From a virus (taxonomy: Duplodnaviria > Caudoviricetes), in the IMG/VR virus record IMGVR_UViG_3300033076_001012, positions 1-64,000 of that record: a stretch of 64,000 nt of DNA; one strand, given 5' to 3'. Positions 11,066 to 21,355 of this stretch are shown here, piece by piece. Numbering within the stretch: position 1 is the stretch's first letter; every line of letters begins with the position of its first letter. Below the pieces are notes generated by a model that worked only from the letters and a program-made list of their open reading frames with translations, made no database searches and was not told the DNA's origin. Position numbers and translations under genes: made by a program.

Positions 11066-11141
11066 AATTAACGATCTACAAATAACCTTAGTAAAACTAC
11101 TTAAATATACACTGTTTTATTAAGGTTATTTGTTGTTAGCA
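11066..11141 (-). repeat. attC-like site A3 (76 bp)
   Basis: Minus strand: TGCTAAC aacaa ATAACCTTAATAAAAC ... GTTTTACTAAGGTTAT ttgtagatc GTTAATT. Confidence 0.75.
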
Positions 11142-11147
11142 ACTGTT

Positions 11148-11645
11148 TTATAATCCTGAATTTTTACTCATTATTCTTGAGTAAAAATCTGCATACATTT
11201 TAAAAAATTTATTTAATTCTGCTTTATTTTCCGTATAAAAATCTATTCTCCAGTCGTCTTCTGTAATTCCTTTTTCATTTACCACGGGTCGTGGTAAATA
11301 GGTTGAACTTGTTTTAATTTTATCAAGCTGATTTACAAGTTTTTGCCATTTATTTCTTGTAAATATGCCAGAAAAACCCGAACTTATTGTTAATAAATCA
11401 ACCTCATCAATAAGTACTTGAAACTTATCAATATTCCACTCTTCTGTCAAAAGATTAGAATTTTTTGTTATTAGCTCTTTGGGAGATACAGTAATAAATT
11501 CTCGAAGTACGGATTTGTTATGTTTGGCAATTGCCCATATCCATTCCAACATTGTCTTTGGTATTGTTAATAGTGCCACTACAATAGATAACACTAATGC
11601 AAAATTATTTGCAAATGTTGTCCATGTAATGCAGATTATTTTCAT
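11148..11645 (-). CDS. cassette membrane protein, paralogue of 14686-15153
   Basis: N-terminal hydrophobic helix; IAKHNKSVLREFITVSPKELITK aligns with INEHNKRLFTDYIKIHPADLLTK. Confidence 0.75.
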   Translation of the reverse strand: MKIICITWTTFANNFALVLSIVVALLTIPKTMLEWIWAIAKHNKSVLREFITVSPKELITKNSNLLTEEWNIDKFQVLIDEVDLLTISSGFSGIFTRNKWQKLVNQLDKIKTSSTYLPRPVVNEKGITEDDWRIDFYTENKAELNKFFKMYADFYSRIMSKNSGL

Positions 11646-11947
11646 AAAACGATTTCTAAAAGAATAAGAATGTATGCAAGATACCTCCTTATTTTTTACG
11701 TTCCTCCTATTAGTTACTCATACATAAATTACTAGTAATTATTCGATTTTCTAAAAATTTCTCTACATTTATTTTAACTATTGTTTTTAGATAATAGCCG
11801 ATTAAAAAGTAGTTAACTTAAATTTTTTAGAGAAATGATTTGGATAATCATGTTTGGATTAATCACTCTTGTTAGAGAACTGACAAATTTGGTTAAAGCT
11901 ATTAAAGAGTAGCTGTGTAGTAGATAAATTTGAGTTTATTTACTTTG

Positions 11948-11976
11948 TCCCCTGTCCACAAGTCAGGGGATTTTTT
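11948..11976 (+). terminator. terminator-like hairpin
   Basis: tcccctg/cagggga stem followed by a T run. Confidence 0.5.
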
Positions 11977-11979
11977 ATT

Positions 11980-11987
11980 TATATTTG
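11980..11987 (+). promoter_or_regulatory. Bacteroidota sigma-A -7 element (TAnnTTTG)
   Basis: TATATTTG upstream of the structured leader and the plus-strand gene at 12216. Confidence 0.6.
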
Positions 11988-12030
11988 TTATAGTATTCAT
12001 ATAGCGTTAGCTATTCTCTTGTGGTTGAAA

Positions 12031-12200
12031 GCTTGGAAATTTTCAAACAGTAAACAAGAAATAGTCCTAATGCTCACGTCAAAGCGTGGGTTTAGGCTTT
12101 TCTATTTACTGTGGGTCTTCCAAGCACCTCAATCTATAGATTAGCATTAAGGCCCACGCTGATTTTTTATAAACTATCTACATAGGGTCTTGGTAGATAC
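12031..12200 (+). ncRNA. candidate structured RNA / 5' leader with possible pseudoknot
   Basis: Nested stems gcttggaa/ttccaagc and acagtaaa/tttactgt, plus crossing pairs taatgct/agcatta and agcgtggg/cccacgct. Confidence 0.4.
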
Positions 12201-12215
12201 AAAAAACCAAACTCT

Positions 12216-12812
12216 ATGAAAAATATTTTCTTTTTATCCTTATTTCTTTATGTTTCATTTATTATTAAATCTCAAGATTTAATAACATTAAAAACAGGTG
12301 AAGAAATTGTTTGTAAAGTAACAGAAATGGGAGTAGATGAAATAAAATATAAAAAACCAGAAAGAGATATAGTATATATAATTAATAAATCAAATGTATT
12401 TATGATTAAATATGAAAACGGAACTAAAGATGTTTTCTCAGATAAAAAAACAGAAACAGTTATTTCATCTACTAACTCAATAGATATGTTTGCTAAAGGT
12501 GAAGCAGATGCTGAAAGATATTACCTTGCGAAAAATACTGGAGCTGTTGGAACATTTATAACTACTATAGCTATGGGTGGATTACCATTTGGTCTTATTC
12601 CTGCAATAGCTTGTTCATCAACCACACCTAAAATGCAGAATTTATATATACCCGATAATACATTATTAAATAATAATCTCTATATGACCGGATATAAAAG
12701 CACCGCACATTCAATAAAAAAACGTAAAATATGGGGTGCTTTTGCTGCTGGAATAGCAGTAAATTTTGCAACTGGTATTATAGCATACAGTATTATAAAA
12801 AATAAAAGATAA
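12216..12812 (+). CDS. Bacteroidota-type exported/membrane protein (moron-like)
   Basis: Signal peptide; SQDLITLKTGEEIVCKV...IKYENG..DVF domain; C-terminal hydrophobic helices; opposite strand to all neighbours. Confidence 0.75.
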   Translation: MKNIFFLSLFLYVSFIIKSQDLITLKTGEEIVCKVTEMGVDEIKYKKPERDIVYIINKSNVFMIKYENGTKDVFSDKKTETVISSTNSIDMFAKGEADAERYYLAKNTGAVGTFITTIAMGGLPFGLIPAIACSSTTPKMQNLYIPDNTLLNNNLYMTGYKSTAHSIKKRKIWGAFAAGIAVNFATGIIAYSIIKNKR

Positions 12813-13072
12813 CTGAATTACTCTATAATCTCTGTTCTATCTACCTTTAATAAATGTTTAATATTTTAATAAAGAAGGGAGATTTTCTTTTAAAATTAGA
12901 TGTGAAGAATTTTTGGATTGAACTTGCAAAAGAAATCCTAAAATTTAGCCACACAAAATCTCAAGTGAAGTTGAAGTAGTAGTCTACTTATTAAACAAAG
13001 TACAAGTATCCTGTGTTATTAAATTAGCACAAGTTTTTTTATTTAATCTCCATATTTTCTACAAGAAGTCAG

Positions 13073-13090
13073 CATAAAATAGTTGCTAAT
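13073..13090 (-). repeat. bare cassette core plus leader (ATTAGCAACTATTTTATG), attC lost
   Basis: 17/18 identical to the leaders at 13578-13595 and 13991-14008. Confidence 0.65.
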
Positions 13091-13094
13091 GATC

Positions 13095-13580
13095 TTATTT
13101 TCTCAACCATATAGACTTGTCCATACTCCAGTGAATAAAATAATACATTATTTTAAATATTTTACTTGTTAATTTTATTCTTTTCTCATTATCATAATAA
13201 AAATCCATAAAAGGATCGTCCATTGGTATTATAATAACATTACCATCACATTGTCTTAATGTTTTATTTAAGTCTAATGAATGAATCCCTTTTAAATTTT
13301 TTATTAAATAATATATTACTATTTGCATAGGTAAACTAACAAGTCCAATAAAAAACCTGTTATTAACTGTCATTTTATATGTCTTTATTAATGCTTGTAT
13401 TAATAGTTGTTTGTCAACATCTAATTCAGAATAAATTTCAGGTCTATAGATACCTATGCAATCTCTATATTTGATTGCATTTATATACATAAGTCTTAAA
13501 AATAATGTTGAGAATAAACCAATAGTCCATTCCCAATGTTTTATAAATAAAAAGTCTATTAATGAAGTTGAACTATTCAT
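13095..13580 (-). CDS. cassette membrane protein, paralogue of 14099-14581
   Basis: Two hydrophobic segments; IKYRDCIGIYRPEIY, FIGLVSLPMQI and YYFIHWS align with 14099-14581. Confidence 0.75.
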   Translation of the reverse strand: MNSSTSLIDFLFIKHWEWTIGLFSTLFLRLMYINAIKYRDCIGIYRPEIYSELDVDKQLLIQALIKTYKMTVNNRFFIGLVSLPMQIVIYYLIKNLKGIHSLDLNKTLRQCDGNVIIIPMDDPFMDFYYDNEKRIKLTSKIFKIMYYFIHWSMDKSIWLRK

Positions 13581-13595
13581 AAAATAGTTGCTAAC
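13578..13595 (-). repeat. bare cassette core plus leader (GTTAGCAACTATTTTATG), attC lost
   Basis: Identical to the 18-nt leader at 13991-14008, with no palindrome upstream. Confidence 0.7.
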
Positions 13596-13630
13596 TAGTT
13601 ATTAATGAATAAAAGCATAAATACATTTAT

Positions 13631-13993
13631 TCAAAATATCTTACTTTTATTTTTTATAAAATTATCAAGTTTAATTTTAACATCTTTAATTTTTAAAATT
13701 TCATCATTAGAATATCTTTCAGGATTTGACCATGCTTGTGCTTTATTTAAAAGCAAATACCCTAATTCATTATCTGGATAATAACTGTATATAATAGATC
13801 CAGCATCTGCCCATAATTTAGCAATGTTTATATTTGAAGTAATTACTTCTCCATTATTAGCCAATACTCTTTCAGTCTCAATAATAGCTTTAAATATGGA
13901 ATCACAAATAACTCTTCTTTTTTCAGAATTCATCATTTTATCTTTAATTAATAATATTATAAGATTAAGTATAGTCTCTCTAAACTCTTTCAT
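13631..13993 (-). CDS. cassette hypothetical protein (start reassigned to MKEFRET)
   Basis: The ORF-track extension to 14071 runs through the attC site; ATG at 13993 follows the cassette leader. Confidence 0.7.
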   Translation of the reverse strand: MKEFRETILNLIILLIKDKMMNSEKRRVICDSIFKAIIETERVLANNGEVITSNINIAKLWADAGSIIYSYYPDNELGYLLLNKAQAWSNPERYSNDEILKIKDVKIKLDNFIKNKSKIF

Positions 13994-14001
13994 AAAATAG
14001 T

Positions 14002-14093
14002 TGCTAACGGTTTGCAGATAAAATAAGTTGCCACACAAGTTAACAATAATGAGTATTGTCCAATGTGGCAATTTATTTTATGTGCTGTTATAG
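14002..14093 (-). repeat. attC-like site A2 (92 bp)
   Basis: Minus strand: CTATAAC agcac ATAAAATAAATTGCCACA ... TGTGGCAACTTATTTTAT ctgcaaacc GTTAGCA. Confidence 0.85.
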
Positions 14094-14098
14094 CCAGT

Positions 14099-14581
14099 TT
14101 ATGTCCTCCGCTTATCAAATATATGATATATAGATCCTTTACTTGTCCAATGTATTAACCTATAAAATAAAGGGAAAAAGAAATTGAATATTTTAAATTC
14201 TTTTTCATATTTATAATAATAGTCCTCACTTGACATTTGAGAGTCTATCAAAGTTTCCCCTATGCTTTTTCTGTAATAAAGTTTGCTTAAACTAAACCAC
14301 ATTATTATACTTATGGGTAAAGTAAATATACCAATAGGAAAAGCTAAGTGTCTACCCATATCAATAAAACCATTTATTACTTTAATATAATTTTCTCTGT
14401 CCCAATTTATTTGTCTACTGTCTGTAAGAGTGTCTATATGGTAAATGTCCTCATACCAAACACCTATGTATTTTTTATACTTTAAGTAATTCCAAAACAT
14501 ATTTGTTGTTAAAATTGTAAATAATGTAGTTATAACCCAAATAGGATATTTGTCATAAAAGTCTATGATAAAGTCTTTCAT
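14099..14581 (-). CDS. cassette membrane protein
   Basis: Bounded by GTTATAGCCA and TGGCTATAAC; two transmembrane-like segments. Confidence 0.8.
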   Translation of the reverse strand: MKDFIIDFYDKYPIWVITTLFTILTTNMFWNYLKYKKYIGVWYEDIYHIDTLTDSRQINWDRENYIKVINGFIDMGRHLAFPIGIFTLPISIIMWFSLSKLYYRKSIGETLIDSQMSSEDYYYKYEKEFKIFNFFFPLFYRLIHWTSKGSIYHIFDKRRT

Positions 14582-14588
14582 AAATTGG

Positions 14589-14680
14589 CTATAACGGTTT
14601 GCCGACTTGCCCAGTGCCGCATAACATAGTGTTAAAATTTATCTGTCAATATGCGGCATTGGGTAAGACCGCTGTTAGCA
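14589..14680 (-). repeat. attC-like site A1 (92 bp)
   Basis: Minus strand: TGCTAAC agcgg TCTTACCCAATGCCGCATA ... TATGCGGCACTGGGCAAGT cggcaaacc GTTATAG. Confidence 0.85.
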
Positions 14681-14685
14681 GTTGT

Positions 14686-15153
14686 TTATGTCCACCACCA
14701 AAATACACCATCTTTCCACTTAACAAAGTCCCACAAAGCATTACTTAATCTGTCTATTTGCTTAATGTCCCCTGTTTCATCTTTAAAACTAGTCTTTGGA
14801 TCTGTTGTCCACCAATTTGAATCTAAATTATCTCTTATTTCCTTGACTTCTTGCCCAATTTTTAGTAATTTACTATAATAGTAATTAGCAAAGTAAATTC
14901 CTCTTGCTTTAATTTCTTGTTGTCTACAATACTCAAGATTGTCAAGAAGCTCAACTACTTTTTCAAAATTATATTTGTCGTCAGAGAAATTTATAAAAAG
15001 TCCACGCTTTGTTAAGAGGTCTGCTGGATGTATTTTTATATAGTCCGTAAAAAGTCTTTTGTTATGTTCATTTATTGTCATTAAAATTTTAATTATAGGA
15101 ACAGTCCCAATAAGTCCTGATATTATTACCCAATGTTTTATGATAAATTGCAT
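14686..15153 (-). CDS. cassette membrane protein
   Basis: Bounded by GTTAGCAGTT and AACTGCTAAC; N-terminal transmembrane helix. Confidence 0.8.
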   Translation of the reverse strand: MQFIIKHWVIISGLIGTVPIIKILMTINEHNKRLFTDYIKIHPADLLTKRGLFINFSDDKYNFEKVVELLDNLEYCRQQEIKARGIYFANYYYSKLLKIGQEVKEIRDNLDSNWWTTDPKTSFKDETGDIKQIDRLSNALWDFVKWKDGVFWWWT

Positions 15154-15171
15154 GATAAATAACTGCTAACT

Positions 15172-15208
15172 AATATATAAGTAAAGTTTTTAATTTTACT
15201 TATATATT
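15172..15208. terminator. 14-bp perfect AT hairpin between the polB stop and the first cassette core
   Basis: aatatataagtaaa/tttacttatatatt with a 9-nt loop. Confidence 0.5.
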
Positions 15209-15209
15209 G

Positions 15210-16004
15210 TTAAAATAAAGACATTTGTCCTACTTTCTCTATATCATTTATCCACTTTCTTGCCTCAGATATATAATAAGAGTAATCTATATCATATTCA
15301 TTAAAATCATTAACATAAAAATACTTATTGAAGTAAGTAACTTTCCAATCTTTTCTATTTTTTTCAGGGGCTTCAACATGGGAAATTGTTCCATCCTCGT
15401 ATATTTTATATAGCCAATATCCTTTATTAGATATGTAATATCTAACTGTCTTAGATAATTTTTCTTTAAACAATTGTCCATTTTTAATAGAATGTAATTC
15501 ATATCTTGATGCACCCTTTACTCCTGACTTTTTAGCTCTAACACCTGCACAAAAATCATAAATATTTTGATGATTTTTAATAGTATCTTCTATATTTTTG
15601 TTGTTAACAAAATATTCATATACTGCCAATGGTATTATAGCATGAGATTTATTTTTATGTAAAGGTATATCCTTAAATTCAAATTTACCTTTAGTTTTTG
15701 TTTTACCATTTGTATATATTGCAATATAGTTATTGCAATCTGCTATTATCATTTTCTGATAATCTACAAACTCCATTTCTATTTTATACAATTTTTCATA
15801 TTTCTTACATATAGAATAATATAATTCTTCATACTTTTTAGGTATAAGAACTTCACCACCATCAGTATTTAACATTATAAGTTTACTATCAGGTATGGAT
15901 TCTAATATATCTTCAAAAACCATTGATAATAATAGCTGACCATTTATACATATAGCAAGTGTAACTTTTCTATCTTTTAAAAAACTATATTTATCATTAC
16001 TTAA
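15210..16004 (-). CDS. polB: family B DNA polymerase, exon 2
   Basis: Resumes LSNDKYSFLKDRKVTLAICINGQLLLSMVFE after the intron; contains motif C LNTDGG and DCNNY; 795 nt in frame. Confidence 0.9.
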   Translation of the reverse strand, partial: LSNDKYSFLKDRKVTLAICINGQLLLSMVFEDILESIPDSKLIMLNTDGGEVLIPKKYEELYYSICKKYEKLYKIEMEFVDYQKMIIADCNNYIAIYTNGKTKTKGKFEFKDIPLHKNKSHAIIPLAVYEYFVNNKNIEDTIKNHQNIYDFCAGVRAKKSGVKGASRYELHSIKNGQLFKEKLSKTVRYYISNKGYWLYKIYEDGTISHVEAPEKNRKDWKVTYFNKYFYVNDFNEYDIDYSYYISEARKWINDIEKVGQMSLF

Positions 16005-17141
16005 CGTTTTGTTATCTATAAGGCTTTTTATCCCTATATTCTTTAAATTTTATTCTCTAAAGTCCAGCATATATTTTCATCCATAAACGGATGGTGGATA
16101 CTCGTGATTGGATTATATTTATTCACCAACTATGCGTTACACTACTTTTAAACCTTTCGCAATTTTAAAAGTTAGCACGGTATTAGCATTTCAGCCTTCA
16201 CCGTTTTTACCCACTAATAATCTTAAACATTACTATTTAAGACGGCTCAAAATATTTAAAAACTAAACCTTTATACGGTTTACTATTTCTACAAGATTGA
16301 AAAATATTAGGAAGTTTTAATTCTTTTCCAGATTTACTTCTAAATAAAGAAGTATTGTTCCATATTTCAGAGTTTTCTGTTTTTGATAATCTAACTATTT
16401 CTTGTGCATCTGAATACACTCCCAAAAGTATGTTGTTATGATATACAGAAATTTTTTTCCTAAGTTCTTTAAAGCGAGATCTTCTTTTCAAAAGACCTGT
16501 TTCTGACATAATTCTATCAGCATTTTTTAATTTTTCAATATGTTCATTACTCAATTTCTTACCTTTATTCCAAGGAACAGATTTCATATAATGATTTACT
16601 ATATTTATATACTTTTTTGGTATATCTTGATATAATATATCATTATTTTTTAATCTATAATAATAAGAAATTGCAGTGTTTATAGTTTCTTTAAATGTTT
16701 TAGATCTTCTGCTAAAAACTTCTTTATTTGTAATAATTGGAGGTCTAAAGGAATATATATTTATATTATAACCTCTTTTGTTAAAAGGTTTATAAATATC
16801 AAAAGCTCTTTGTTCCCATTTTAAAACATTATCACATACTAACATTATTCTAAAATAAAATTTATCTGCTCCATATTTATTATACGCATTTTGTAAATAT
16901 TTATTTTCGTGAGAATTCTTTTTTAAACCATTAATGTGAAACATTAATCTATTTTTAAAAGATTTGTTAGTAGATCCTATATAAACTTTTTTAGTAATGG
17001 TATTTACTATTGCATAAACACCTTTTTTGTTTAGTTTTTCTAAATCTCTAATGTAAATTGTCATATTAAATATATTAAGATTGTACTCAATACATCTAAG
17101 ATAAGTATTTTTGCTTAGAAATCCAAATATTTTTTTAGTTA
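16005..17141 (-). ncRNA. group I self-splicing intron in polB
   Basis: The 5' exon ends in U (TATGGT) and the intron ends in G (aacaaaacG). Core elements AAACGGTGAAGGC...GCTAATACCGTG and P7-like GCATA/TATGC lie downstream of the endonuclease ORF. Removal restores KILLNSSYG-LSND. Confidence 0.85.
16237..17064 (-). CDS. GIY-YIG homing endonuclease (intron-encoded)
   Basis: GVYAIVNTITKKVYIGST, R...H, and a NUMOD-like PWNKGKKLS..HIEKL segment. Confidence 0.9.
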   Translation of the reverse strand: MTIYIRDLEKLNKKGVYAIVNTITKKVYIGSTNKSFKNRLMFHINGLKKNSHENKYLQNAYNKYGADKFYFRIMLVCDNVLKWEQRAFDIYKPFNKRGYNINIYSFRPPIITNKEVFSRRSKTFKETINTAISYYYRLKNNDILYQDIPKKYINIVNHYMKSVPWNKGKKLSNEHIEKLKNADRIMSETGLLKRRSRFKELRKKISVYHNNILLGVYSDAQEIVRLSKTENSEIWNNTSLFRSKSGKELKLPNIFQSCRNSKPYKGLVFKYFEPS

Positions 17142-18239
17142 ACCATAACTACTATTAAGCAAAATTTTTAAAATATAATTTCTTGGATCAGATTTTGGTA
17201 TAGACTTTCTTTCATTAAAGAATCCTTCATATAAATTTAAAAAAACATCCTTTGGTAAATGTTCTGCACAAATATTATTTCTTATAGCAAGATTTGGATA
17301 CCATGATACAAAATCTAAAGATTTTATAATATATTTTTCATCACTTTCAATAATTGCATTATTTGGTGAAGCATGTACACCGCCCAAACCATAAACTATA
17401 TCTATACCTGAATGTTTTATTATAAATTCAGGTTTACTTGTTTCAGTTATTATCAAATCTTCATAAGATTTTTTGAGAAGTTGAAATTTTTGAGTTTTAA
17501 AATTAACATATGGAAATATTATATCTTTTACACTAACAATATCTCTTTTAGTACCCATACTTCTTAGATCAGATTCACTTATACCCATAGCTCTACTAAG
17601 ATATTTACTAAATAATCTTTTCGCTAAATCAGGTTCTGTACAATTCAATAAGTTTATACCTTCTCTATCTGTTAATTTCTTTCTAAGATCTATTTCATGG
17701 TAATACTTTTGATAAAGACTTTTTGTAGCTAAAACATCATTTAAATTGTAAGATAAAACCATTTCTTCCCAATTATCACCTTCTCCCTGAGATGGTATAT
17801 CCTCAATATTTGGAAAATCCGTTTGAAATTCACACCATTTTAATCCAACTCTTTTAGCCTTAGTACTTAAACTCAAAGCTCTAAATAAGTCTAAATGTGG
17901 TATTTTAAGTTTCCATTCAGGAACATCTGATTTTCTATCCTCTGAAGTTATAATTTGAGCGTAATTTCTTATTTCTTCAACCGTACATTTAGGATAACGA
18001 AACATATATTCTAATATTTGAGAATCAAAGTGTAAACAATTATAACCTATTAGTCCAGAAACTTCATTTTCTAAAAATGTAAACATTTCTAATCTTTCAT
18101 CTTTTAATGAACTAATCACAAATATCTTTTTATCATCACTATCTCTATCTACAAAAGTAGCTGTAAAAATATTCAATGTTTCTAAATCATATATCCAAAC
18201 CTTTTTATACATTTTTTTTAATTTAGTTATATTTTTCAT
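17142..18239 (-). CDS. polB: family B DNA polymerase, exon 1 (3'-5' exonuclease plus palm motifs A and B)
   Basis: YDLE, GYNCLHFD, YNLNDV, YGLGGVH, DFVSWYPN, KILLNSSYG. Confidence 0.9.
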
Positions 18240-18286
18240 TAAGTAAACATACGCTTATCACCTGTTATGTACAATAAAATGCGCCA

Positions 18287-18573: not shown

Positions 18574-18659
18574 ACATAACAGCACCCTTGCGCAATTAGG
18601 TTGCTGTTAATATTTTTATGGATGCAACCTAACTATCGCAAGGCCGCAACCCGTTATGC
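18574..18659 (+). repeat. attC-like site B1 (86 bp)
   Basis: ACATAAC agcac CCTTGCG..TTAGGTTGC ... GCAACCTAA..CGCAAGG ccgcaaccc GTTATGC. Confidence 0.85.
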
Positions 18660-18674
18660 GGCATTAAAACGACC

Positions 18675-19000
18675 GCATAACAGCAAATAGGATCAATAAA
18701 TTAATTTTATTCGTAGTTCATTTTGTAATTCAATCAAAGTATCTACTGTAAAATTATGTCCTCCACTTAACCACTTAGTAATAACAGAGGGTTGTTGTTT
18801 CATTTTTAATGCTAATTCTTTTTTACCTATCTTATTTTTTGCCATTCCTTCACTAATCTTCTTAGCAATAGTCATTTTTGCTAAAGTTTTTTCATAAGCA
18901 ACTTTATCTTTTATTTTAAAAAAATCGTCTAATATTTTGCTCTCGTGTTTTTTCATTTGTATAAAATTAATTTACTAAGCCTATTTGCAAACCGTTAGCG
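18675..19000 (+). repeat. attC-like site B2 (326 bp) with a gene in its loop
   Basis: GCATAAC agcaa ATAGG..TAAATTAATTTTA ... TAAAATTAATTTA..CCTAT ttgcaaacc GTTAGCG. Confidence 0.8.
18693..18956 (-). CDS. XRE/HigA-like HTH protein (orphan antitoxin-like) inside the B2 loop
   Basis: KKELALKMKQQPSVITKWLSGGHNFTVDTLIEL is an XRE-type HTH pattern. Confidence 0.8.
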   Translation of the reverse strand: MKKHESKILDDFFKIKDKVAYEKTLAKMTIAKKISEGMAKNKIGKKELALKMKQQPSVITKWLSGGHNFTVDTLIELQNELRIKLIY

Positions 19001-19125
19001 GTCATTGCCTAAAATTTCTGAATATTGTATGTTATTGCCATTATTATCGGATGAAGCCAAATACTGCTTACCTGCTAATTTAAAAGGTTGTCCTAAATAA
19101 ATTTCAGGCAACGCCACTTCGTTAC

Positions 19126-19189
19126 CGCTAACAGCACCTAAAACGCAACTCCGCTACGCTCCGCAGCGTTTAGCTGCAAAACGTTAAAT
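19126..19189 (+). repeat. attC-like site B3 (64 bp)
   Basis: CGCTAAC agcac CTAAAACGC ... GCGTTTAG ctgcaaaac GTTAAAT, with one extra A in the left arm. Confidence 0.85.
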
Positions 19190-19197
19190 GTAATGCC

Positions 19198-19515
19198 TTA
19201 GCCCTCGCACGCTTTTATCATATTTTCAACTTCGTCAAACATTTCATAAGGCAAATGAGTTGGTCTATCGTCTTCTTCTGATATTTTATAGAGTGCGTGT
19301 TGATGAACTTTTTTTAATAACACTAAAAGTTCATTTTTTATTTTACACTCAAATTGGTATTTTTCAAAATAATCAGCTTGAGCTTGTTTCTCATTATAAA
19401 TAACGGTAAATGTTGAGCCATCTTTATCAACAATACATCCTATTTGGTTAATTTCGTGTATCGAATTATTTGTAATCCAGTTTAAAAAATCACGAGTATT
19501 AAATTGTTTTGTCAT
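19198..19515 (-). CDS. cassette hypothetical protein (likely start MTKQF)
   Basis: The ORF-track extension to 19587 runs through the attC B4 arm. Confidence 0.65.
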   Translation of the reverse strand: MTKQFNTRDFLNWITNNSIHEINQIGCIVDKDGSTFTVIYNEKQAQADYFEKYQFECKIKNELLVLLKKVHQHALYKISEEDDRPTHLPYEMFDEVENMIKACEG

Positions 19516-19556
19516 ATTAGTTTTTTTTAGTTTTAAAATGCCACCAAAGGCACTAC

Positions 19557-19634
19557 ATTTAACACGTAATTGGCGCAAGCCTTTCACGTTGGCTACCTGC
19601 TAACGGCCTGCCGCCAATCACGAGGCCGTTATGC
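19557..19634 (+). repeat. attC-like site B4 (78 bp)
   Basis: ATTTAAC acgta ATTGGCG ... CGCCAAT cacgaggcc GTTATGC. Confidence 0.85.
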
Positions 19635-20045
19635 TCCATTGCCTCGCTTAAAATACATTACTAAATCAGTTTGTATTACTTCGAGGTACTTTGCATCCTG
19701 TTCACTATTCCCTTCACTTGTATATGTCATTATGCAATTAAGAATATCTTTCAATTCGCTCGGCAACGAGAGCATAACAGGGGCTTTAATAAATAAACTA
19801 AAATTATCCCATGCCATAAATTGATAGTCATATTCAGTATAATTTATTCCTATTGAACTAATGTATGATAGTATATCAGTTTCAGTTGCATTGGCGAAAA
19901 TATATCTATGCGTTACTTTGCCTCCATCAATATTAAATTTAATGTGCGTAGATGCTTCGTGTTCTGTTGGTTCGCCATGCAACTGACAATGTGTTGTATA
20001 TGCCTTACATTGCTTGTATGCTATTGTTAATCTTCCTTTTTTCAT
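19629..20045 (-). CDS. hypothetical protein starting in the B5 loop and ending in the cassette body
   Basis: Reads through the attC arm as FSLFIKAPVMLSLP and stops at the TAA inside the distal GTTA core. Confidence 0.65.
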   Translation of the reverse strand: MKKGRLTIAYKQCKAYTTHCQLHGEPTEHEASTHIKFNIDGGKVTHRYIFANATETDILSYISSIGINYTEYDYQFMAWDNFSLFIKAPVMLSLPSELKDILNCIMTYTSEGNSEQDAKYLEVIQTDLVMYFKRGNGA

Positions 20046-20090
20046 AATGAATAATTTTAGTTTACTTCTTAAAGCCCCATCCCGTTATAA
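19772..20090 (+). repeat. attC-like site B5 (319 bp) with a gene in its loop
   Basis: GCATAAC aGGGCTTTAA..TAAACTAAAATTAT ... ATAATTTTAGTTTA..TTAAAGCCC catccc GTTATAA. Confidence 0.8.
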
Positions 20091-20118
20091 GTAACCCTAT
20101 CGGGTCGCTATCGCTTAC

Positions 20119-20391
20119 TTATAACAGCAAATAGGCTCAAGTTTTTAAACTATTAAGCCGTTTCTGCTCCTCAATTCTAAACATTTCGTAAAGCTCCTCA
20201 ATAGTCTTATACTCACAAGTAATATTTGACCAATATTTGCCTACGTGTTTCGGGTGCGTTTTAAGTCGCTTTACCCATTCGTTTTTTTGTAGCCACTCCG
20301 CAAAGTTTACCGCTACCATTTTAACTGCTTCTAATATCATTTCCATTTCGTTAAAGTTTAAAAACCTAAGCCTATTTGCGTAACGTTAGCG
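20119..20391 (+). repeat. attC-like site B6 (273 bp) with a gene in its loop
   Basis: TTATAAC agcaa ATAGGCT..GTTTTTAAACT ... AGTTTAAAAAC..AGCCTAT ttgcgtaac GTTAGCG. Confidence 0.8.
20137..20346 (-). CDS. small hypothetical phage protein inside the B6 loop
   Basis: VNFAEWLQKNEW...YKTIEELYEMF motif; lies wholly between the attC arms. Confidence 0.7.
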   Translation of the reverse strand: MEMILEAVKMVAVNFAEWLQKNEWVKRLKTHPKHVGKYWSNITCEYKTIEELYEMFRIEEQKRLNSLKT

Positions 20392-20397
20392 GCAACC

Positions 20398-20643
20398 CTA
20401 AAAAGACTGCCACACAGTTTCAGCATCTGACCAAAAGCCAAAATCAAAATCGGTAATGTCTTGGTCTTTTTGAAAGACAAACATTTTAAACGTTCCATTT
20501 TTTGACTTAATGATTTGCTTTTGAAAGCTGTAAAACTCAACAGTAAGGCACTCTTGAAATGGTGCTGAACTTGCGTCTACAAAAACTCTGTCGCCATTAG
20601 TGCTTACTCTTAATCTCTGTTCGCTTGGAATGTGTATGTTCAT
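20398..20643 (-). CDS. cassette hypothetical protein
   Basis: Bounded by GTTAGCGGC and GCCGCTAAC. Confidence 0.65.
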   Translation of the reverse strand: MNIHIPSEQRLRVSTNGDRVFVDASSAPFQECLTVEFYSFQKQIIKSKNGTFKMFVFQKDQDITDFDFGFWSDAETVWQSF

Positions 20644-20671
20644 TTTATTTTGATTTGTGAAGAAGGGCAGC

Positions 20672-20803
20672 CGCTAACAAGGTATTAGCTATATGGCGGC
20701 TAACGTGCTTCGGTTAAACATTTGTTCTTTTATCAACTGCGGTTCTTCGTATCGGCTGTGTTGCTGTAATTCCGCCACATCGCTAATACCCGAACCGTTA
20801 TAG
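20672..20803 (+). repeat. attC-like site B7 (132 bp)
   Basis: CGCTAAC aaggt ATTAGC.ATATGGCGG ... CCGCCACAT.GCTAAT acccgaacc GTTATAG. Confidence 0.85.
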
Positions 20804-20810
20804 CCAATAG

Positions 20811-21206
20811 CTACCATTCTCGGTCAACACCGACTTGTATGAAGTCAACACTTTCCGAATAACAACCATTTGATTCACCAAACCAACGAATATCTACATA
20901 GCCTTTTATCGTTGCTATTTTATAAAATGTCCACGTACAAGAACCCCAATCATTTGCTTCTTTTGTTCGCTTAATGTCTTCTTCCGAAGTTGGTTCATAG
21001 TTTGAAACTTCTTCTGCTTTTAAGATTGGTGTTCCAATCAAGTCGTTTAAGTCACCGTTAATATCTTCAATCGAAACACTTTCACAGCAATTTTGTCCGT
21101 GATACATTTTGTATTGTGTTCCATCATCAACGATAAAAATTAATTCATCGCCATTGTTTTTGATTTCGGTAAGTGTTTTACCTACTAAGTCTTTAAATTC
21201 TGCCAT
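20811..21206 (-). CDS. conserved phage protein (DUF7448-like) in a cassette
   Basis: MYH.Q.CCESV.IEDI.GDL..LIG.PIL.AEE...[25 protein letters not shown]; family name from recollection. Confidence 0.7.
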
Positions 21207-21253
21207 TGTATTTGTTTTTAAAATTAAGTTTCTACTAATTAATCCGCTACTGG

Positions 21254-21355
21254 CTATAACAGCACCTTAGCGTCAGTTTTTGGCTATTTAGTTTATAGGT
21301 AACTTGAACATTTCGGTAAGCCAAAAACCAAACGCCAAGCTGCAAAACGTTAGCA
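21254..21355 (+). repeat. attC-like site B8 (102 bp)
   Basis: CTATAAC agcac CTTAGCG..GTTTTTGGCT ... AGCCAAAAAC..CGCCAAG ctgcaaaac GTTAGCA. Confidence 0.85.

Follow-up and report, generated by a model that had tools for sequence, protein, structure and literature searches.

Hairpin sites placed in front of, and apparently often coding for, the starts of genes in an integron-like phage cassette array

Anatomy of the array

This report concerns an array of hairpin sites and small genes in a virus of the class Caudoviricetes (Duplodnaviria), IMG/VR record IMGVR_UViG_3300033076_001012, an 89-kb genome that is about 94% complete. Its first 64,000 nucleotides (nt), positions 1 to 64,000, were analyzed and are called the window throughout. 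The GC content of the window is 25-36% in 2-kb steps and about 26% in the region flanking the array, and at the DNA level the window weakly resembles the DNA polymerase gene of Cellulophaga phage phi14:2. The array lies on the minus strand, from 21674 to 18264, and comprises nine GTTA and nine TAAC cores, such that nine bodies, each running from GTTA to TAAC and having complementary ends, alternate with eight complete hairpin sites. In each complete site the order is TAAC, 5 nt, stem, loop, stem, 1 nt and GTTA. The sites were called with our own pattern finder, not with an attC covariance model, and have the build of attC-type hairpins, i.e., a RYYYAAC core, an L'' arm, a loop, an L' arm and a GTTRRRY core, the R and L boxes being separated by unpaired bases. 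A search for tyrosine recombinases gave no PF00589 match anywhere in the 89-kb genome, and with nine cores and eight full sites from that same finder the locus is a candidate attC cluster without integrase (CALIN). The cores and the features at the center of the analysis are as follows.

GTTA cores (position of the G), minus strand: 21674, 21260, 20678, 20125, 19778, 19563, 19132, 18681, 18580
TAAC cores (position of the C), minus strand: 21349, 20797, 20385, 20084, 19628, 19183, 18994, 18653, 18264
19629..20045, minus strand: gene of 138 amino acids (aa); codons 1-89 in the loop and L' arm, codon 90 the core GTT, codons 91-138 in the body
19775..20087, minus strand: hairpin site whose loop contains a gene start; TAAC 20087-20084, 5-nt spacer, L'' arm 20078-20051, 243-nt loop, L' arm 19807-19780, 1 nt, GTTA 19778-19775
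19628..19778, minus strand: body A, 151 nt, with ends GTTATGCTC and GAGCATAAC; encodes the C-terminal 49 aa of the 138-aa gene

A single open reading frame (ORF) of the window, 19629-20045, crosses a core. An earlier note on this DNA had described this ORF as starting in a hairpin loop, reading through the arm and stopping inside the opposite core, and both its coordinates and its translation hold. The ORF begins 6 nt into the loop that the 28-nt arms enclose (20078-20051 and 19807-19780, 93% complementary), reads ..FIKAP-V-MLSLP.. across the arm and the GTT at 19778 (the stretch of the protein spanning arm and core being ..FIKAPVMLSLPSELK..) and terminates at the TAA of TAAC. The two 28-nt arms and the two cores are all intact here, so that the loss or truncation of attC seen in fused cassettes is not found. 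Each end of body A has, in addition, a second short stem inward of it (TTGCC/GGCAA).

Only three homologues of the 138-aa ORF (P0001, P0002 and P0003) were retrieved from among 5.8 billion proteins; Pfam and PHROGs gave no match, and scans of viral and metagenome contigs gave no relatives. P0001 (related locus L003, 93% identity) and P0002 (locus L001, 74%) are full-length homologues, and their DNA shares with the window the 28-nt arms, the GTTATGCTC core and a body end reading ..GAGCATAAC or ..GATCATAAC. The neighbors of the site and body A differ on both sides in all three places, and thus the two recur as one unit bounded near TAAC.

The mobile unit and the coding of genes through sites

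Related arrays were found with a pattern derived from the sites of the window, which matched at least 119 viral contigs; the counts given here for the family were taken among the matches listed, comprising 62 strand-consistent locus-strands of related phage contigs, in which the site geometry of the window recurs, and 115 bodies with complementary ends. Loci L068 and L067, whose flanks are 100% identical, are distinguished by exactly one unit of 756 nt, with GGTAACGT on both sides. The unit consists of C, a spacer, the L'' arm, a loop with a leader and an ATG, the L' arm, GTTA, a body and TAA, and its gene begins in the loop, runs across GTTA and ends at the TAA of TAAC. Likewise, L080 and L067 differ by two whole TAAC-bounded units, the flanking aligned segments being 99.8-99.9% identical. 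The right ends of segments shared between arrays fall at TAAC, and so do most left ends, with TGTTA less frequent, so that the classical pattern, with crossover at G/TT and a cassette made of a gene and its downstream attC, is not seen even though a minority of the breakpoints lie at TGTTA. Furthermore, the upstream site is common to 3 of 7 pairs of near-identical bodies, the downstream site to none, and neither to the remaining 4. Given the insertions and the shared-segment ends at TAAC, the usual unit is a site together with the gene downstream of it, and a loop-started gene lies within one cassette. Hence, a swapping of C-termini by recombination at the core, as the earlier note had envisaged, is not supported as the normal mode: whole genes move.

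In three pairs of loci (L035/L046, L032/L045 and L058/L062), an identity of 88-95% extends from the site over the first part of the body and the 5' leader as far as the ATG, after which the genes are unrelated; judged from these alignments, the start codon is apparently a third kind of breakpoint.

The genes of the family follow the strand of their sites (86 sense and 4 antisense). The longest ATG-initiated ORF starts in the upstream site and crosses GTTA in 34 of 86 cases, in none of the 86 reads past TAAC, and in 26 stops exactly at the TAA of TAAC. Among 201 non-redundant sites, 71 contain an ATG that is open to the core and is followed by at least 50 open codons, whereas about 28 would be expected under independence. 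An ORF start that crosses the core is found in 64 of the 96 sites longer than 90 nt versus 5 of the 105 shorter ones. The ATGs in the loops come after AT-rich leaders, and in many cases a further in-frame ATG is distant or missing altogether.

The frames in which these ORFs cross the core (GTT in 30 cases, G/TTA in 35 and GT/TAY in 6) show that the GTT frame is not preferred across the family. The DNA of one and the same L' arm is even read in two frames, depending on the cassette (..ERQFCQTD/V versus ..NGNFAKPM/L; L005, L009, L007 and L078). Thus, the arm-encoded residues arise as a by-product, the loop ATG being adjusted to the individual body, and a frame-locked device of the kind implied by the earlier note is not supported as the normal mode. 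The notion that bodies are built to be translated by a ribosome arriving through the arm fares better in part: it agrees with the putative translation of body 19778-19628 and with the 71 of 201 family sites, but fails at eight of the nine cores of the window, which no incoming ORF crosses. Upstream of each of these eight, a stop at a distance of 2-12 codons closes the GTT frame and no ATG intervenes, so that no ribosome can reach them through the arm in that frame.

Taken together, the region is probably part of an integron-like cassette array of a Bacteroidota-type phage, in which the mobile unit is a site plus the downstream body and a loop-started gene is a usual layout. The unit would be a folded hairpin site with the body that follows it, i.e., C, the 5-nt spacer, the L'' arm, the loop, the L' arm, 1 nt, GTTA, the body and TAA. 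The anatomy, the bounds of the unit, the counts of frames and the make-up of the homologues are read directly from the sequences, whereas we infer the acting enzyme, the strand that would be cut and the translation of the ORFs. Crossover would take place within TAAC or its spacer, which would leave each site at the 5' end of its own gene. Three arrangements of the coding sequence would then occur: entirely within the body; entirely within the loop, in which case a body of 29-43 nt is left; or divided between the two, beginning in the loop, passing the L' arm and GTTA and continuing in the body, in many cases as far as the TAA of the following TAAC. ORF 19629-20045, of which the loop holds 89 codons and the body 49, would be an extreme case of the third arrangement, one gene in one cassette. 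Re-pairing of sites and bodies at or just after GTTA in the course of evolution would occasionally give chimeric small proteins.

The tail of the 138-aa protein

Several observations weigh against this reading; they concern the protein tail encoded by body A, the pairing of sites with bodies and the crossover itself. In the comparison with L003, the N-terminal part of the gene has 7 synonymous and 3 non-synonymous codon changes, mostly at third positions, and is on this count under purifying selection; body A has 2 synonymous and 6 non-synonymous ones. In the AlphaFold model of the 138-aa protein, built on a 4-row alignment, the N-terminal domain is moderately confident (block means mostly 71-87, lower at residues 11-30), and the tail is helical with low confidence, at a predicted local distance difference test (pLDDT) score of 42-55, so that a division of the protein into two modules is suggestive only. 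In view of the codon changes and these scores, the role of body A as a protein tail is putative.

The same data could mean that the read-through is accidental, i.e., that a loop gene whose stop in the L' arm was lost now continues into the decaying relic of a body, and that neither the 49-aa tail nor the open frame of a second body, body B (below), is more than a functionless remnant. Indeed, other loop genes stop inside the L' arm, both in the window (the genes of 69 and 87 aa) and in L047, L077, L097, L114 and L120, the copy of body A in L002 has suffered a 1-nt deletion, and body B lacks an ATG. However, the fusion is kept in three contexts, and in L001 the body, which has the first 22 and last 20 nt of that in the window, is strongly diverged in its interior and 15 nt longer and yet is still open, over 54 codons. 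Moreover, modules of both bodies are present in other proteins: that of body A, 74% identical, in P0004, and that of body B, 63% identical over the matching part, in P0007. The GTT frame is open over 49 codons of body A and 45 codons of body B, which in shuffled sequences has a probability, P(open), of 0.017 and 0.033, respectively. We accordingly regard an accidental origin of the read-through as unlikely.

Re-pairing of sites and bodies

The earlier note had proposed, as a check, that homologues of the loop-encoded N-terminal part would switch to unrelated C-termini at the valine codon of the core, and the outcome is divided. Both full-length homologues, P0001 and P0002, keep the same tail. 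Seen from the tail, on the other hand, body A does occur in other company: P0003, encoded in L002, joins an unrelated 45-aa loop-encoded N-terminus to it, and the independent small protein P0004 has the interior of the module behind an ATG of its own and with a different tail. The junction in P0003 does not fall at G/TT, as a swap at the core would predict; homology begins 9-12 nt after the G of GTTA, inside the body, the two end boxes no longer match, and the deletion in L002 shifts the frame and truncates the ORF.

Body B provides the second case. Its features are the following.

18994..19132, minus strand: body B, 139 nt, with ends GTTAGCGGT and ACCGCTAAC; 45 codons open in the GTT frame
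19129..19186, minus strand: short hairpin site 5' of body B; 47 nt between the cores, no start codon, GTT frame closed 7 codons before the core

As originally observed, the 45 codons of body B are open in the GTT frame without an ATG; the sole possible start is a GTG at 19117 and the stop is the TAA of TAAC. Its 45-aa translation had no match in Pfam or PHROGs, and a search of 1.8 billion representative proteins showed residues 50-84 of the 87-aa protein P0007 to be 63% identical to it. The P0007 ORF, in L123, has a 47-aa N-terminal part, crosses a GTT core in frame and stops at the TAA of TAAC, so that body B corresponds to the C-terminal 38 aa of a core-crossing protein, in line with the earlier proposal. 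The ends of the L123 module are GTTACTCCG and CGGAGTAAC, as against GTTAGCGGT and ACCGCTAAC of body B, five paired end positions having changed together. Hairpin arms were sought upstream of the GTT core in L123 and none were seen, so the N-terminal part of P0007 may lie outside any site of the hairpin kind found in the window. Most likely, body B is a copy of a C-terminal module that either has no start or is started at GTG 19117, parted from its N-terminal half. Another candidate relative, P0006, a 1569-aa PPC/dockerin protein, was set aside because the match consists of a short repeat only and is uninformative.

A more general observation points in the same direction as P0003 and P0007, which join the modules of bodies A and B to other N-termini: 4 of the 7 near-identical bodies sit behind different sites, similar bodies being mostly behind dissimilar sites, and among 25 pairs of start-bearing sites that are near-identical, the bodies that follow are unrelated in 23, the sequences parting at GTTA. 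Such a pattern of like sites and unlike bodies can reflect exchange at the core or homogeneous families of sites as in sedentary integrons. In L004, L087 and L100, furthermore, unrelated halves of 45-52 codons in a loop of about 185 nt are joined in the GTT frame to 33-35 codons in a body of about 110 nt. The bodies of these three share the start V[SI][SK]SVC.C, which is encoded by the conserved DNA arm; we also considered whether they form one zinc-ribbon family with the tail of P0004, but they gave no mutual tblastn hits and homology is unproven.

These cases could be taken to mean that the bodies are C-terminal modules read from a start in the preceding hairpin, and that exchange at the GTTA core is a recurrent, selected, mix-and-match re-pairing of loop-encoded front halves with body-encoded back halves, in which case the array would serve as a library not only of genes but also of protein halves, and the products of that exchange would include the 138-aa protein, P0003, P0007 and the two-half proteins of L004, L087 and L100. 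The placement of body A behind two unrelated loop-encoded N-termini as well as its own ATG, and the compensating changes in the end boxes of body B, would fit such a device. Against it, recent events carry site and body as one unit, the crossing frames are mixed, the uniform attC sites of sedentary integrons look alike without exchange there, and what L004, L087 and L100 have in common at the start of their bodies is a conserved stretch of DNA and not a demonstrable protein homology. Together with the displaced and frameshifted junction in L002 and the eight cores of the window that no ORF enters, this makes a dedicated device improbable, if slightly less so than accidental read-through. Occasional evolutionary re-pairing at the GTTA core is nevertheless real; no dedicated mechanism or common frame for it is visible.

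As for the crossover, copies of a unit that are otherwise about 95% identical have different 5-nt spacers behind TAAC (gggat at 20083-20079 of the window, gtttt at 1646-1650 of L001 and ggttg at 464-468 of L003). The spacer may be the overlap region within which the strands cross over; because it varies between copies of the same unit, the crossover is placed no more closely than within TAAC or its spacer. On the gene strand of the sites the longer arm is the 5' one, as in the top strands of classical attC sites, and by analogy crossover would be expected at G/TT and not at TAAC. Finally, this phage has no recombinase gene of its own in 89 kb.

Array ends and recombinases

About 35 arrays of the family end at the TAAC of a body followed by a conserved motif that resembles half a site and is in this respect attI-like. 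The array of the window ends similarly, at 18264.

18245..18267, minus strand: array end; the last TAAC (18267-18264) is followed by AGGTGATAAGCGTATG and then by the start of polB, with no hairpin after it

At six loci a gene for a Xer-like tyrosine recombinase of about 270 aa lies beyond the TAAC end, on the strand of the cassette genes.

L001, 2733-3560: recombinase gene
L047, 4615-5439: recombinase gene
L087, 4633-5457: recombinase gene
L013, 6318-7130: recombinase gene
L046, 7881-8657: recombinase gene
L016, 2-754: recombinase gene

In L013, L016 and L046, where the spacing was worked out, the gene begins 55-75 nt downstream of the array end. Five aligned copies all have conserved R, K, H-x-x-R, H and Y positions, which we read as the putative catalytic set of the recombinase. 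In an NCBIfam scan the L001 and L013 proteins scored best with XerA, XerD and XerC, below the cut-offs, and each matched the integron-integrase model TIGR02249 in two stretches (best reported, model positions 7-177 and 239-314) with the middle of the model skipped. Neither in the 89-kb genome nor among these two copies was an integron integrase with the IntI-specific extra domain found. Two or more sites of this kind occur at only 3 of the 80 bacterial loci that were checked because they encode a relative of the recombinase.

L153, 1525-6512: two or three sites near a recombinase relative, Myroides odoratimimus
L145, 8139-9791: two or three sites near a recombinase relative, Algoriphagus sp.
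L170, 9964-11029: two or three sites near a recombinase relative, Belliella kenyensis

The idea that a host enzyme serves the phage arrays is accordingly no more than weakly supported.

A second array occupies window 11069-15209, with plus-strand sites at 11069-11135, 14005-14087 and 14592-14674, and ends at TAAC 15167 plus TAATATATAAGTAAA. Its genes are antisense to its own sites, an arrangement rare in the family (4 of 90). The attI-like ends of both arrays face the polB region (15210-18239). Between the ORFs 15210-15923 and 17139-18239 of that region lies a 275-aa ORF (16237-17064, minus strand) that, inspected by eye, may encode a candidate homing endonuclease of the GIY-YIG type; if so, the polymerase gene would seem to have been split or invaded.

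Remaining sites of the window

The other sites and bodies of the minus-strand array include two sites with a whole gene in the loop, each followed by a tiny body, and three ordinary bodies.

20122..20388, minus strand: gene-in-loop site; whole 69-aa gene 20137-20346 in the loop, 25-nt arms, gene stop inside the L' arm
20084..20125, minus strand: tiny body behind this site, 42 nt, reading VISKR*
18678..18997, minus strand: gene-in-loop site; 87-aa helix-turn-helix gene 18693-18956 in the loop, 28-nt arms
18653..18681, minus strand: tiny body, 29 nt, reading VMRSF*
20797..21260, minus strand: ordinary body with its own gene 20811-21206 (DUF7448); 18-codon leader in the GTT frame, which is closed 2 codons upstream of the core
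19183..19563, minus strand: ordinary body with its own gene (ATG 19515, gene end 19198); 16-codon leader in the GTT frame, which is closed 12 codons upstream of the core
20385..20678, minus strand: ordinary body with gene 20398-20643 in another frame; the GTT frame ends VSGCPSSQIKIK*, its TGA overlapping the ATG

Both loop genes end inside the L' arm, and the product of 18693-18956 has a weak match to HTH_3 (XRE-like; E 2.8e-4) and falls in a PHROGs group of transcriptional regulators. Gene-in-loop sites with arms of 17-28 nt followed by tiny bodies of 29-43 nt are also present in L047, L097, L114 and L120.

The readings reported for the tiny bodies, the open leaders of 16 and 18 codons at 19563 and 21260 and the TGA/ATG overlap of the body at 20678 were all reproduced. 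The simplest account of such open frames is chance, i.e., an effect of composition in short AT-rich stretches, and for the leaders it is adequate, their P(open) in shuffled sequences being 0.26 and 0.17, not significant; the overlap is likewise within chance. Only the 49- and 45-codon open bodies go beyond chance in the window, both of them have homologues, and the tie between an ATG in the site and a long open frame across the family exceeds expectation, so that chance as a general explanation is very improbable and, where the two long bodies are concerned, refuted. Four of five body genes of the window are in the GTT frame (P about 0.045), a bias that is absent from the wider family, where genes starting in the body use the three frames 11:23:18. 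Translational coupling by the TGA/ATG overlap at 20643 was considered and dropped; the GTT frame is closed 2 codons before that core. If the cassette reading is right, the leaders, VISKR*, VMRSF* and the overlap would all be untranslated leader or filler.

Discussion

The observations of the earlier note are confirmed, and its interpretation is partly supported: coding that begins in the site in front of a gene is probably the usual layout of an unusual family of phage cassettes and not a dedicated device for swapping protein tails.

The closest known systems are integrons and CALINs, the latter having been published in virulent phages, including Polaribacter phage P12002L, with the classical G/TTRRRY junction (Qi et al. 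2023, PMC9892861). As there, small, mostly co-oriented genes lie between imperfect hairpins with ..TAAC and GTTA.. cores, the body ends are complementary, stops often fall in the TAAC box, and some related arrays have an attI-like end beside a tyrosine recombinase. The phage of the window has no integrase of its own. By contrast, the cassette described here is a site plus the downstream gene with TAAC bounds, the classical one being a gene plus its downstream attC with crossover at G/TTRRRY (PMC9892861). Moreover, many of the sites are coding and contain either an entire gene or its start codon with the 15-25 initial residues, the recombinase near related arrays is Xer-like, and the stem is interrupted by spacers of 5 nt on one side versus 1 nt on the other.

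Fused cassettes of class 1 integrons, e.g., blaGES-1/aacA4 and ant(3'')-Ii/aac(6')-IId (PMC4670013), and translational coupling across a truncated attC (PMC8876359) are similar in that an ORF or a translating ribosome passes between cassette parts, and bifunctional fusion proteins are known there. Those fusions are rare and arise through partial or complete loss of attC, whereas here the hairpin is complete and is itself putatively translated, and the layout is frequent.

Reverse integrons of the Treponema type are mentioned in bioRxiv 10.1101/2020.05.09.085589 and PMC4909258. They resemble the present family in that, unlike in classical integrons, the integrase or recombinase and the cassette genes are co-oriented. 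In reverse integrons the integrase is located upstream of the cassettes and is a true IntI. The recombinase of the related arrays, by contrast, is downstream, beyond the TAAC end.

A further parallel is offered by the promoter-stem-loop (PeSL) regulatory cassettes reportedly described in T4-type phages by Arbiol and colleagues in 2010. There, too, repeated structured elements flank small accessory genes in hyperplastic regions of phage genomes and mark points of gene exchange. PeSLs are believed to act via homologous recombination and carry promoters and terminators; they are not known to have conserved TAAC/GTTA cores, complementary body ends or a dedicated recombinase.

In our search of the literature, no paper was found in which an intact attC-type hairpin contains a start codon or an entire gene. 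For integron tools and textbooks, attC is non-coding and the cassette is a gene with a 3' site, whereas here the site stands in front of the gene and is often, putatively, translated. With the site 5' of the gene and often coding, gene callers would clip N-termini and cassette annotators would split genes, so that claims of "ORF-less" cassettes or of fusion proteins should weigh a site-before-gene layout. Should re-pairing at the core prove frequent, it would constitute a natural route of domain shuffling for phage accessory proteins. The combination of a hairpin site, a TAAC end motif and a small Xer-like recombinase is a testable system for the recombination of single-strand hairpins without the IntI-specific domain, and the same system bears on how far recombination sites double as coding sequence.

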